Shown here: piece after piece, positions 43,994 to 45,829 of the stretch
Position numbering within the stretch: position 1 is the first letter of the stretch
How the letters are laid out: every line of letters begins with the position of its first letter
From: a virus
Lineage: Duplodnaviria > Heunggongvirae > Uroviricota > Caudoviricetes
Reading direction: 5' to 3' (one strand)
Length of the DNA stretch: 52,258 bases
IMG/VR virus record: IMGVR_UViG_2721755660_000011
Made by a program: the position numbers and the translations under genes
Notes under the pieces: model-generated
Told to the model about the DNA's origin: nothing
What the model saw: the letters and a program-made list of their open reading frames with translations, nothing else
The model's database searches: none

Positions 43994-44029
43994 CTACTTA
44001 AAGTAGCGAATTGCAACTACTTAAAATAG
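43994..44029. promoter_or_regulatory. OR-like operator pair (CTAC-N5-GTAG half-site palindromes, 23 bp apart) in cI/cro divergent region
   Basis: ctacttaaagtag (43994..44006) and ctacttaaaatag (44017..44029); same motif and the same 23 bp spacing recur at 45794..45829. Confidence 0.55.
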
Positions 44030-44031
44030 AA

Positions 44032-44772
44032 ATGACGAGCGTATGTGATGTGAGTAATCTTCTACCTATGGTAGAAGAACAGAAGTATCCAGATTTCGCC
44101 AAGAGACTAAACGAGTTAATGACAAACAAGGGAATTTCTGTCACCCAACTCAAAAGTCTTGTTGGCGTTACATATGAAATGGCGCGGCGATACACAATCG
44201 GCGCAGCGAAGCCTCGTGCCTCTGTCATGAATAAACTTGCGTTGGCTCTGGGGGTATCGGCTTCATATTTAGAATATGGTGTTGGCGAGAGAGAAGGATG
44301 TAAGGAAATGGCAAGCATCCCCAATCCAACAAAACCCGACGTATACAGGATAGAAGTTTTAGATCTTAGCGTTAGCGCAGGACCTGGAACCTATATGCTT
44401 TCAGACTATGTTGATGTGCTCTACGCCATTGAGTTCACAACAGAACATGCCCGTTCTCTTTTCGGTAACCGTTCTCAGGATGATATTAAGGTTATGACTG
44501 TAAATGGCGATAGTATGTCCCCTACTCTCGTTTCCGGAGATCGACTGTTTGTCGACATTTCTGTTCGTCACTTCCAGACTGATGGAATTTACTCTTTCGT
44601 TTACGGTAAGACTTTTCATGTTAAACGTCTTCAAATGCAAGGTGACAAGCTAGCCGTTCTTTCGGATAACCCTGCCTATGAGAAATGGTACATCGATGAA
44701 AAATCGCAGGATCAGCTTTATGTAATGGGCAAGGCGTTGATTCATGAGTCAATAAAATACAATCGGTTATAG
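44032..44772 (+). CDS. cI: CI-like prophage repressor (HTH + S24 LexA-like peptidase domain)
   Basis: N-terminal HTH (GISVTQLKSLVGVTYEMARRY); C-terminal S24 motifs (VNGDSMSP ... FHVKRL); start taken at first ATG (44032) abutting operators; ORF track gives TTG at 44011. Confidence 0.8.
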   Translation: MTSVCDVSNLLPMVEEQKYPDFAKRLNELMTNKGISVTQLKSLVGVTYEMARRYTIGAAKPRASVMNKLALALGVSASYLEYGVGEREGCKEMASIPNPTKPDVYRIEVLDLSVSAGPGTYMLSDYVDVLYAIEFTTEHARSLFGNRSQDDIKVMTVNGDSMSPTLVSGDRLFVDISVRHFQTDGIYSFVYGKTFHVKRLQMQGDKLAVLSDNPAYEKWYIDEKSQDQLYVMGKALIHESIKYNRL

Positions 44773-44787
44773 TTCTAAGGGCATATA

Positions 44788-45135
44788 ATGGCTAGTGAGC
44801 AGGGATTCGAAAAGATTAACATGGATATGTTGGTCTCTTATTTCTCAGAAAAGAATATATATCTAAAATGTACACTATGTGGACACGACAGATTGACTGT
44901 GCCTCAAGTCAGCGCGAATGTGGGCATGCCATGTACTATGAAACTTGGTAGTTATGTGAATGTTTTTACTGAAAAAAGCATTTATTCTGATACTGCTAAC
45001 CAGTATTACTTTTCACTAATATGCAACAATTGTGGAAATGAAATTCATATAAATGCGTTTTCAGTTTTGAACTGGGTAAATGAAAAGTTCCCAGCAAAAA
45101 CGGAAGATGAAAAAAATGCCGACGCCGCAAAATAA
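44788..45135 (+). CDS. Hypothetical zinc-ribbon-like protein co-transcribed with cI
   Basis: 115 aa; two CxxC pairs (CTLCGH, CNNCGNE); good Shine-Dalgarno 16 bp after cI stop. Confidence 0.5.
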   Translation: MASEQGFEKINMDMLVSYFSEKNIYLKCTLCGHDRLTVPQVSANVGMPCTMKLGSYVNVFTEKSIYSDTANQYYFSLICNNCGNEIHINAFSVLNWVNEKFPAKTEDEKNADAAK

Positions 45136-45487
45136 TGTAGTACCATTTAATAGTGAACTTCCCACAATTAGAAGACACGGTGGAGATGGCGGAGGTGATG
45201 ACATGCTTGAAGCCCGAGTCGCTAAGTTAGAAGCGAATGTTGAGGATATAAAAACAAATCTCGCAGAGATGAGAGCTGACATTCGTGATTTGCGAAACGC
45301 TCTCTCCGACACCCGACGCGATGTCGCTGTTATCCTTCAAAAACAAATAGATATAGATGAAAAGTTGTCAAAAAAACCTAGCCTAAGTGAAGTCAACAGC
45401 GCTATTTCATCAGCCGTAAATAAACAGATCGCATGGACTGTTGCAACAGGCTTGGCGATTTTAGGTCTCGCCAAATTTATGTTTTGA
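45116..45487 (+). CDS. Hypothetical coiled-coil protein with C-terminal transmembrane anchor
   Basis: Coiled-coil segment (LEARVAKLEANVEDIKTNLAEMRADIRDLRNAL) and C-terminal hydrophobic helix (IAWTVATGLAILGLAKFMF); start placed at ATG 45116 (GGAAG upstream); ORF track starts at 45080. Confidence 0.45.
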   Translation: MPTPQNNVVPFNSELPTIRRHGGDGGGDDMLEARVAKLEANVEDIKTNLAEMRADIRDLRNALSDTRRDVAVILQKQIDIDEKLSKKPSLSEVNSAISSAVNKQIAWTVATGLAILGLAKFMF

Positions 45488-45793
45488 TAAGTTTTTGACT
45501 ATGACCTGCCCTAGTTTTCTTACTATCGAGGCTAAATCACACAATCCATTGAGTAGTAAATTCCCTACCGTTTTACACTTAGCCTCCAAAAACTCAACAA
45601 TACTCTCATGATTGACTTCTCCCCACTTGATGATTAACTAGATCACATACTGATCTCAGCCACAATGAAACAATCCATCACGTTCTACAACTCAGCTAAC
45701 TTCACAATATAATTTTTTGATCATAGCCCCCAAAATATTTTACCTGTAAATTCAATGAATTAATTTCAAAATGCGTTTTTATGCCCTTAACTT

Positions 45794-45829
45794 CTACTTT
45801 TTGTAGTTGATTTTTGCAACTTTAAGTAG
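45794..45829. promoter_or_regulatory. OL-like operator pair (same CTAC-N5-GTAG motif, 23 bp spacing)
   Basis: ctactttttgtag (45794..45806) and caactttaagtag (45817..45829), upstream of the plus-strand early-left operon. Confidence 0.5.

Follow-up and report, generated by a model that had tools for sequence, protein, structure and literature searches.

Lambda, HK022 and the layout of the immunity region

The cI and cro genes of phage lambda are transcribed divergently from OR. Transcription of cI runs parallel to that from PL, and the rexAB position downstream of cI holds accessory genes. Dyad-symmetric operators overlap PR and PL, with the third OR site providing negative autoregulation, while the PRM transcript is leaderless and cleavage of the repressor is RecA-dependent. 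In the known lambdoid switches, CI and Cro share operators. To our knowledge, little functional study has been devoted to a third OR site that covers the start codon of a leaderless cI transcript, as would be the case both in HK022 and in the locus described here. In HK022 itself (GenBank X16093), two adjacent OL sites are paired with three at OR, of which OR3 stands apart from the others with its centre on the cI ATG; according to the annotation, oL1 falls within the pL spacer and oL2 at the -35, and oR3 covers the cI ATG. HK022 CI is reported to bind cooperatively at adjacent operators, with OL–OR looping, and mention is made of an OL3 at 53 bp from OL2 and of a further site located 300 bp downstream of OR (PMC8053113).

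Here we analysed the immunity region of an E. coli prophage within a 52,258-nucleotide stretch of viral DNA (the window). One dyad-symmetric element, CTAC-N5-GTAG in exact or one-mismatch form, occurs three times at OR and twice at OL on the far side of cI, and comparison with related phages makes it very likely that these five palindromes are the operators of CI, and very probably of Cro as well. The first-pass annotation had seen in them the classical OR/OL arrangement; its reading of the sites as operators is supported by the comparative data, but the layout is that of HK022 (three OR and two OL sites) and not lambda's three plus three. The window resembles lambda in the cI/cro divergence, the shared direction of cI and PL, the accessory-gene slot and the dyad operators over predicted PR and PL. 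It differs in having two OL sites where lambda has three, in operator sequence (the 17-bp lambda operators are unrelated), in the position of OR3, which lies over the start codon rather than upstream of the PRM start, and in the CI N-terminal domain, for which no sequence relation to that of lambda CI was detectable. The switch is a further variant of the lambda/HK022 design and leaves the understanding of lysogeny control unchanged. The genes concerned are:

43117-43668, minus strand: cII-like regulator YmfL (Phage_CP76)
43697-43960, minus strand: cro-like HTH repressor, 87 aa (WP_000098317.1; PF15943/phrog_35)
44068-44772, plus strand: cI repressor, 234 aa (WP_023145979.1), HTH_3 N-terminal and S24 C-terminal domains
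44788-45487, plus strand: two cargo ORFs downstream of cI
45836-50800, plus strand: probable PL transcript, with a leader shared with SfV, an orf33-like gene, yfdP/Q/R/T, an HTH-domain ORF at the xis position, and the integrase

The divergent cro and cI genes are separated by a 107-bp gap that holds the three OR sites. CI matches HTH_3 (E = 1.8e-5) and Peptidase_S24 (E = 7e-17) in Pfam; the recognition helix in its HTH domain is GVTYEMARRYTIG, and the closest solved structure to the N-terminal domain is the 434 repressor (E = 0.13). A LexA-type cleavage site (Ala104-Gly105) and a Ser149/Lys186 dyad are present, and S103-A104-G105, S149 and K186 are invariant in a six-sequence alignment. On the other side of OL, the gene context is as the first pass described it, with a leftward promoter facing a plus-strand xis/int operon: the genes begin at 45959, include the HTH-domain ORF at the xis position and end with the integrase (49637-50800), close to the tRNA-Thr (50815-50890) that forms the prophage end.

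Probable operator sites and predicted promoters

Operators and promoters, the latter predicted from the sequence, are arranged as follows:

43988-44016, minus strand: predicted PR toward cro, -35 TTGCAA (44016-44011), 17-bp spacer, -10 CATTAT (43993-43988)
43994-44006: OR1, CTACTTAAAGTAG, exact CTAC-N5-GTAG; promoter-proximal, fills the PR -35/-10 spacer
44017-44029: OR2, CTACTTAAAATAG, one mismatch (ATAG); abuts the PR -35
44032-44060, plus strand: predicted PRM, -35 ATGACG, 17-bp spacer, -10 TAATCT
44062-44074: OR3, CTACCTATGGTAG, exact; centred on the cI ATG (44068)
45794-45806: OL2, CTACTTTTTGTAG, exact; distal operator, abuts the PL -35
45807-45835, plus strand: predicted PL, -35 TTGATT (45807-45812), 17-bp spacer, -10 CAATAT (45830-45835)
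45817-45829: OL1, CAACTTTAAGTAG, one mismatch (CAAC), within TTGCAACTTTAAGTAGCAA; fills the PL spacer

The four sites named in the first-pass annotation are all found where it placed them (starting at 43994, 44017, 45794 and 45817), and the spacing it called identical is 23 bp start to start in both pairs. Its shared half-site pattern is exact at 43994 and 45794 but has one mismatch each at 44017 and 45817, and it was right about two sites in the cI–cro gap but missed the third, the exact match at 44062. At OR1, GCTACTTAAAGTAGC forms a perfect 15-bp palindrome, and OR3 sits inside a 19-bp near-palindrome, CTTCTACC-TAT-GGTAGAAG. The OL1 half-site that reads CAAC here is CTAC in most relatives. 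The operator consensus for the window's immunity type is ttgCTACTT(a/t)AAGTAGcaa.

Searching the whole 52-kb window, we found three exact matches to CTAC-N5-GTAG against 0.21 expected, all of them in the two regulatory gaps, and none of 100 shuffles reached three. When one mismatch is allowed the count is eight against 8.75 expected, so that the relaxed pattern by itself shows no window-wide enrichment, and this, together with a half-site of only 4 bp, is what could be said for regarding the palindromes as functionless chance occurrences in AT-rich intergenic DNA. Five of those eight matches, however, are confined to two stretches of ~80 and ~36 bp. In a 19-bp palindromic weight matrix, which is partly circular in being built from these same sites and their variants, the five score 20.4–26.2 bits, some 9 bits above the next best position in the window (11.7), and the top score among 50 shuffles was 16.3. 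Spacing and flanking hexamers are identical at PR and PL, the sites form part of an island conserved in ~200 Escherichia coli genomes, and five further phage lineages that share the HTH also have the motif (see below). The chance reading is already refuted, and its remaining probability is negligible. The weight-matrix scan of the window revealed nothing above background beyond the five sites, neither an HK022-like OL3 nor a counterpart, inside cro/cII, of the HK022 site 300 bp downstream of OR.

When both are read in the direction of transcription, a gapless 42-bp alignment (33/42 identical) shows PR and PL to be inverted copies of one cassette, in the order O2 (13), -35 (6), 4 nt, O1 (13) and -10 (6); the equal 23-bp spacing at OR and OL arises because PR and PL are this same cassette. 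A separate repeat search returned a 57-nt inverted repeat with 75% complementarity (43987-44043 versus 45780-45836); no inverted repeat linking the OR and OL regions is longer or better than the inverted cassette. The predicted PR, PL and PRM hexamers are weak, falling below the threshold of a consensus promoter scan, though they are present with conserved 17-bp spacers; in the PL -10, C, A, A and T at positions 1, 2, 5 and 6 are invariant in eight variants. The top match of the consensus scan, a candidate alternative PL at 45684-45713 (TCTACA-18-TATAAT), was rejected: the cargo-specific DNA in which it lies is missing where the same cI and OL occur in other genomes, which places the candidate outside the conserved switch.

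The predicted PRM -35 begins 2 nt downstream of OR2, and its spacer is 17 bp in 64/64 matching loci, with the length but not the sequence kept between ATGACn and TAAnCT. The predicted start would fall at about the A of the cI ATG (44068), giving a leaderless or nearly leaderless cI mRNA. Upstream in-frame starts at ATG (44032) and TTG (44011) were considered for cI and rejected, since a 17-base stretch conserved in length and not in sequence fits a promoter spacer and not coding sequence. PGAP annotates the TTG as the cI start in strain CX12, and the PSTCR8lys record likewise starts upstream; in HK022 and its relatives, CI starts at the MV... codon. The centre of OR2 lies ~45 bp upstream of the predicted PRM start, a position from which CI may or may not activate PRM.

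The three OR and two OL sites occupy the positions annotated in HK022, and the same arrangement is found in Citrobacter and Enterobacter relatives. Odd-length operators with an N5 centre are common to both phages, and HK022 OL1 shares the core ACTTTAAGT with OL1 and OR1 of the window. HK022 CI is 43% identical to the window CI overall, and much closer in the S24 domain. O1–O2 spacing is 23 bp in the window versus 24 bp in HK022, OR2–OR3 spacing 45 versus 33 bp, and the OL–OR distance, with the cargo genes in between, ~1.8 versus ~0.7 kb. The half-site is CTAC in the window and TGAAC/TGTAC in HK022 (full operators TGAAC-N5-GTTCA), and the recognition helix is TYEMARRY versus TPKAISKW. Since half-site and helix both differ, the prophage is an architectural relative of HK022 that stands outside its immunity group.

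Recognition helix, operators and a model for the switch

The closest full-length CI in a collection of 50,697 phage records, none of which has the window's repressor, is that of HK639 (58% identity), whose sites are of the form ATAAC-N4-GTTAT. The recognition helix is shared more widely. SYEM[AI]RRYT is common to E. coli phage Phi06_2987 S, Providencia PSTCR8lys, Aggregatibacter Aaphi23, Acinetobacter AbTJ and Moraxella Mcat4, and all five carry CTAC-N5-GTAG clusters in the cI–cro gap and downstream of cI, mostly as three sites in the gap and one or two downstream. Their CI C-terminal domains are far more diverged; thus the identity of Aaphi23 CI to the window CI, 30% overall, is concentrated in the N-terminal domain. 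We define a CTAC-N5-GTAG/YEMARRY class by the helix [ST][YH]EM[AVI]RRYT together with clustered sites at both positions; it comprises the window, its E. coli variants, these five phages and the 60 IMG/VR contigs described below, and includes phages of Enterobacteriaceae, Morganellaceae, Pasteurellaceae and Moraxellaceae. The first-pass annotation had taken the operators to define the immunity type of this prophage, but the recognition class is common to phages of several bacterial families.

Details of layout vary within the class. Phi06_2987 S and PSTCR8lys have the same OL cassette as the window with 23-bp spacing, whereas the downstream sites are 55 bp apart in Aaphi23 and 45 bp apart in AbTJ, and in Aaphi23, AbTJ and Mcat4 OR3 does not overlap the annotated cI start. 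No operator descriptions for these five phages were found in the searchable literature, and a full-text search with the operator strings returned nothing relevant and no account of CTAC-class operators.

Exchanges of the HTH are matched by exchanges of the half-site. A Citrobacter CI with a C-terminal domain nearly identical to that of the window but a different HTH is associated with TTAAC-N5-GTTAA sites, and the CIs of HK022 and of one Enterobacter element, with the helix TPKA[IV]SKW, with TGAAC/GTACA sites. A scan of genome contigs with full-length CI recovered only two loci, which are domain-swap controls, and no new CTAC-class members. Set against HK022, HK639 and SfV, a kind of comparison that the first pass had proposed, the locus has an HK022-like layout and operators unlike those of all three.

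The palindromes might instead be read by Cro or another regulator of the module, such as the cII-like YmfL, with CI acting at other, unrecognised sites. Cro homologues do accompany the motif (Aaphi23 Cro is 38% identical, while the Cro of the Citrobacter element, with its other operators, is unrelated), and because the operators co-vary with Cro as they do with the CI N-terminal domain, the comparative data do not separate CI from Cro as the reader. Yet the CI helix, GV[ST]YEM[AVI]RRYT[IL]G, is conserved nearly residue for residue in every lineage with the motif, even though CI is otherwise far more divergent; among repeats linking OR and OL, the inverted cassette is the best; and the sites lie at the operator positions of the HK022 GenBank record, in a phage whose CI is reported to bind its operators (PMC8053113). 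We therefore regard an arrangement that leaves CI out as unlikely. Cro binding, given that operators are shared in the lambdoid switches, would add to CI binding and not replace it.

With CI as reader, dimers would bind the palindromes through the N-terminal HTH. Two operators would serve each early promoter, PR (minus strand, leading to cro, the cII-like gene and the replication genes) and PL (plus strand, leading to the xis-position ORF and int): one would fill the 17-bp spacer between -35 and -10, and a second, presumably weaker one would abut the -35 hexamer. With the two sites of each pair, centred 23 bp apart, filled cooperatively, both early operons would be kept off in the lysogen, possibly with OL–OR looping. 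OR3, directly downstream of the predicted PRM -10 and over the cI start codon, would block cI transcription at high CI, i.e. negative autoregulation. Given the Ala-Gly site and the Ser/Lys dyad of CI, the prophage should be inducible through SOS-triggered self-cleavage of the repressor.

On balance, we lean slightly towards the view that the operators, the YEM[AVI]RRY helix and a matching Cro form one portable module, carried on strongly diverged C-terminal domains in phages of at least four families, with OR3 fixed on the start codon of a leaderless cI in the enterobacterial members. If so, otherwise unrelated prophages might cross-repress one another. The natural domain swaps constitute a ready data set connecting one HTH helix to one half-site, in both directions, from which superinfection immunity between prophages could be predicted and orthogonal repressor–operator pairs drawn.

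Conservation and mosaic surroundings

Among 5426 complete E. coli genomes, the segment comprising OR and the cI N-terminal domain was found in 205 and the OL probe in 201, counts that overstate the number of independent observations, many E. coli and IMG/VR loci being close relatives; co-location of cI and OL was established in individually examined loci and in a few rows sharing accessions. The operator consensus and predicted promoter map apply to an immunity type present in ~4% of complete E. coli genomes. Most genomes matching the OL probe align only over 45790-45838, that is, over the operator pair, the -35 and the -10, and in the alignment the cargo DNA upstream of this island is unrelated, as is the leader on its other side in O157 strain 146N4. 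CTAC/GTAG is fixed across the variants and the central bases vary, e.g. CTACCTCAAGTAG and CTACTCAAAATAG in strain 998. In IMG/VR, of the retrieved contigs that carry the OL cassette together with 2.7 kb or more of sequence upstream of it, 60/60 encode a [YHF]EM[AVS]RRY protein no more than 3.5 kb upstream, and on the same strand in nearly every case.

The modules flanking the switch are ~96–98% identical to the early regions of Shigella phages SfV, SfII and SfIV and of e14-type elements, with the ymfL/cII-like gene on one side and the PL leader, the orf33-like gene and the yfd genes on the other, and the SfV-group att site is the same tRNA-Thr beside proA. The immunity module itself has been replaced: SfV cI and cro are different genes, and the putative SfV operators are GTACC-type palindromes. 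SfV-type homology begins ~15 bp past the PL -10 and the cargo upstream of OL2 varies, so that both edges of the OL block are mosaic joints, and the 42-bp cassettes might accordingly be recombination joints in the main, or elements acting at the RNA level, rather than operators. Such joints are expected around any immunity module, however, and leave both the dyad symmetry and the co-variation with the HTH unexplained. As for RNA, the 4-bp arms are too short for stable hairpins, the conserved PL leader gave no sign of a nut- or put-like structure (fold z = -0.67, no better than shuffled sequence), and Rfam has no match at OR or OL, with only a sub-threshold STnc100 further downstream. We consider this explanation very improbable, and retain the operator reading.

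The two cargo ORFs, which are probably co-transcribed with cI, occupy a slot whose gene content differs among genomes that carry this cI. A defence role was considered for them and set aside, the PADLOC matches being weak (E 1e-4 or worse) and the PHROG families of unknown function. A 13-nt inverted pair (44776-44788 and 45777-45789) flanks the cargo; a 2-kb region should contain roughly one pair of this kind by chance.

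Probable operator sites on either side of cI

The first-pass annotation had named four sites (43994, 44017, 45794 and 45817) as operators with one motif common to OR, in the gap between cI and a cro-like gene, and OL, downstream of cI. The finding is real and this interpretation essentially right. The analysis establishes the sites, their conservation, their co-variation with the helix-turn-helix (HTH) domain of the repressor and the domain content; the switch mechanism set out below is a proposal built on these. The sites lie among the following genes, annotated by transfer from RefSeq for E. 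coli GB089 (NZ_CP013663; locus coordinates + 34689 = window positions), whose chromosome matches 34690-52258 of the window at 99.9% identity or more:

43117-43668, minus strand: ymfL, cII-like
43697-43960, minus strand: cro-like HTH gene
44068-44772, plus strand: cI, with HTH_3 and Peptidase_S24 domains
44788-45487, plus strand: two small ORFs, function not known
Next ~470 bp: stretch without annotated gene
Beyond, plus strand: operon of orf33-like, yfdP/Q/R/T, an HTH-domain ORF at the xis position and integrase, ending at the tRNA

All four sites were found. The shared half-site pattern, CTAC-N5-GTAG, is exact at 43994 (OR1) and 45794 (OL2) and imperfect at 44017 (OR2, ...ATAG) and 45817 (OL1, CAAC...), and OR, credited with two sites, has an exact third at 44062 (OR3). 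The exact pattern thus occurs three times in the window (43994, 44062, 45794) against 0.21 expected, with three or more in 0 of 100 shuffles; the motif search that the annotation had proposed places it nowhere outside the two regulatory gaps. Allowing one mismatch gives eight, where 8.75 are expected, and five of the eight sit inside the gaps (43994, 44017, 44062, 45794, 45817). A 19-bp weight matrix scored the five sites at 20.4-26.2 bits, the next best in 52 kb at 11.7 and the top of 50 shuffles at 16.3; as the matrix derives from the very sites it scores and from their variants, it is partly circular, and the gap counts more than the absolute bits. A motif-blind repeat search recovered a 57-nt inverted repeat, 43987-44043 versus 45780-45836.

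Among 5426 complete E. coli genomes, OR with the cI N-terminal segment is present in 205 and a 91-bp OL probe in 201. Most OL matches align only from probe position 31/34 to 72/79, that is, window 45790-45838, which comprises both OL operators with the -35 and -10. Every fetched locus has all five sites, the OR spacings being 23 and 45 bp and the OL spacing 23 bp. In an alignment of OL variants OL forms an island: upstream DNA is unrelated across cargo types (see below), and in O157:H7 146N4 the downstream leader is unrelated too. Strain 998, whose cI diverges furthest among the variants (N-terminal domain ~82% identical in DNA), retains CTAC and GTAG with altered central bases (CTACCTCAAGTAG and CTACTCAAAATAG).

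Separately, in O157:H7 146N4, at locus positions 1922-3498, cro is split by an IS3-family element; the adjoining cI is intact and all five operators are present, so that this prophage has a repressor without an intact cro.

Putative operator sequence and the repressor helix

No phage in a 50,697-record collection carries the same cI gene; the best full-length CI matches are HK639 (58%) and HK022 (42-43%). These two and the Enterobacter and Citrobacter relatives have the C-terminal domain in common with the window CI and differ in HTH and operators. HK022 and an Enterobacter element pair the helix TPKA[IV]SKW with TGAAC/GTACA operators, and HK639 pairs SQPAIQKM with ATAAC-N4-GTTAT; comparison with known lambdoid operators, also suggested in the first-pass annotation, finds half-sites other than CTAC in both phages. 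The Citrobacter element, near-identical to the window CI in its C-terminal domain, has the helix TTPGVWKW and TTAAC-N5-GTTAA sites, three plus two.

The reverse search, with OR DNA and the N-terminal 74 residues of CI as queries, found the helix GV[ST]YEM[AI]RRYTLG retained in phage CIs whose remaining sequence is much more diverged (Phi06_2987 S; Providencia PSTCR8lys and PSTRCR_117lys; Aggregatibacter Aaphi23; Acinetobacter AbTJ; Moraxella Mcat4). In every one of these that was scanned, CTAC-N5-GTAG sites cluster both between cI and cro and downstream of cI, AbTJ and Mcat4 having been checked as a prediction once the helix-operator rule had been stated. The immunity specificity is not peculiar to this prophage. 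In IMG/VR the OL cassette pattern occurs in 119 stretches, 80 of which were fetched; of these, 60 extend 2.7 kb or more upstream, and every one of the 60 encodes a [YHF]EM[AVS]RRY protein at most 3.5 kb upstream, although many contigs are close relatives, so that the 60 tests (42 distinct cassette sequences) are not independent. The protein is almost always on the cassette strand, ~0.7-2.5 kb away.

Cro co-varies with the operators as CI does (Aaphi23 Cro 38% identical, Citrobacter Cro unrelated), which would fit CI and Cro sharing operators and does not separate the two proteins. The solved structure nearest by sequence to the N-terminal domain is, weakly, that of 434 repressor (E = 0.13). 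A literature search of limited coverage found no published description of CTAC-N5-GTAG operators. What we find most interesting is the spread of one helix-operator pair across families on strongly diverged repressor scaffolds.

Predicted promoters and the proposed switch

Read in the sense of transcription, the PR cassette (minus strand) is CTATTTTAAGTAG-TTGCAA-TTCG-CTACTTTAAGTAG-CATTAT and the PL cassette (plus strand) CTACTTTTTGTAG-TTGATT-TTTG-CAACTTTAAGTAG-CAATAT, identical at 33 of 42 ungapped positions. In both, the distal operator is followed by a -35-like hexamer, 4 nt, the proximal operator and a -10-like hexamer, the spacer being 17 bp; this shared cassette (13 + 6 + 4) explains why both pairs have the identical 23 bp spacing noted earlier. 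As the hexamers are weak and absent from a consensus promoter scan, we infer PR and PL here from the invariance of TTG and of PL -10 positions 1, 2, 5 and 6 in eight variants. Between OR2 and OR3, ATGACG, 17 bp, TAATCT and 7 nt (the left half of OR3) precede the cI ATG. The spacer is 17 bp in 64 of 64 pattern-matching related loci, its sequence unconserved. We read these hexamers as a putative PRM, probably starting at the ATG or at most 2-3 bases away, so that OR3 would span approximately -6 to +7; the ATG has no evident Shine-Dalgarno sequence upstream.

The layout, earlier described as the 'classical OR/OL arrangement', is HK022-like rather than strictly lambda-like. In the HK022 GenBank record oL1 lies within the pL spacer and oL2 at the -35, oR1 and oR2 are 24 bp apart, and oR3 is 33 bp beyond, over the cI ATG; the window shows this design too, spaced 23 and 45 bp. 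The operators can be seen to be related in their cores (HK022 OL1 TGAACTTTAAGTACA, window OR1 GCTACTTTAAGTAGC). The element matches HK022 in architecture and lacks the half-site and helix that homoimmunity with HK022 would call for, and layout and cores together indicate an HK022-type switch of different specificity. HK022 CI is stated to bind adjacent operators cooperatively and OL-OR looping has been shown (2021 paper, PMC8053113), with mention of an OL3 and of one additional site downstream of OR; the weight-matrix scan of the window found no counterparts of these two.

In a lysogen, CI dimers would occupy OR1 and OL1, the best palindromes, within the promoter spacers and, aided by cooperativity, also OR2 and OL2, weaker sites at the -35 hexamers, so that PR and PL would be blocked. 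The separate OR3, over the cI start, would fill at higher CI concentration and shut PRM; by analogy with HK022, an OL-OR loop across ~1.8 kb is plausible. SOS-induced CI self-cleavage at Ala104-Gly105 would release repression, after which Cro would bind the same sites.

A palindrome in the predicted cro leader, CCTCTG-AAATC-CAGAGG (43969-43985), overlaps the Shine-Dalgarno sequence, is retained in strain 998 as CCTCT-AGAATTC-AGAGG, and might form a 5' hairpin or serve as a further binding site.

Cargo slot and prophage setting

The slot from the cI stop to OL2 is interchangeable cargo. Its genes vary among the fetched loci (two different ORF pairs and a ParA-family ATPase, in some cases with IS elements); the coordinates compared, in loci with the same cI, are:

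Window, 44788-45487, plus strand
L005, 1727-2718
L006, 1853-2929
L012 (O157:H7 146N4), 4544-5629

Here the ORFs encode 115 aa (CxxC pairs, phrog_4293) and 126 aa (phrog_3556; coiled coil and C-terminal hydrophobic segment, predicted by eye); other same-cI genomes have the ParA-family ATPase or a different pair. Since the slot takes the position of lambda rexAB, it is a guess by analogy that the cargo may comprise exclusion or defence genes expressed in the lysogen; PADLOC gave weak matches only. The ~300 bp of non-coding DNA from the cargo ORFs to OL2 (45488-45793), specific to this cargo type, yielded no terminator-like hairpin, though cI-operon transcription heads toward PL. It includes a strong consensus promoter-like site, TCTACA-18-TATAAT (45684-45713, plus strand).

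The mosaic joint lies ~15 bp past the PL -10. The PL leader and first ORF (45851-46234; 91 aa, phrog_3195, SfV orf33) are ~96-98% identical to SfV, SfII and SfIV, whose cI genes and operators differ from those of the window. RNA folding in the leader was not significant (z = -0.67). An Rfam STnc100 sRNA match (46485-46700, plus strand; E = 2e-4) scores 32.1 bits, below the gathering score of 47, in a stretch where the sole PGAP annotation is a frameshifted hypothetical protein.

This region belongs to an SfV/e14-like lambdoid prophage, of which it forms the early part; the integration site is tRNA-Thr(cgt) (50815-50890), adjoining proA. As annotated in GB089, where the sequence is identical, an IS421 transposase gene breaks the early-right region, and for the 387-aa Rha/Ash ORF PGAP calls a shorter Rha protein and a DUF4222 pseudogene fragment (~38662-39774 and 41957-43120 cover both observations); some decay of the prophage is therefore possible. 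Genes for tRNA-Arg(tct) and tRNA-Met also lie inside it (32975-33228, minus strand).
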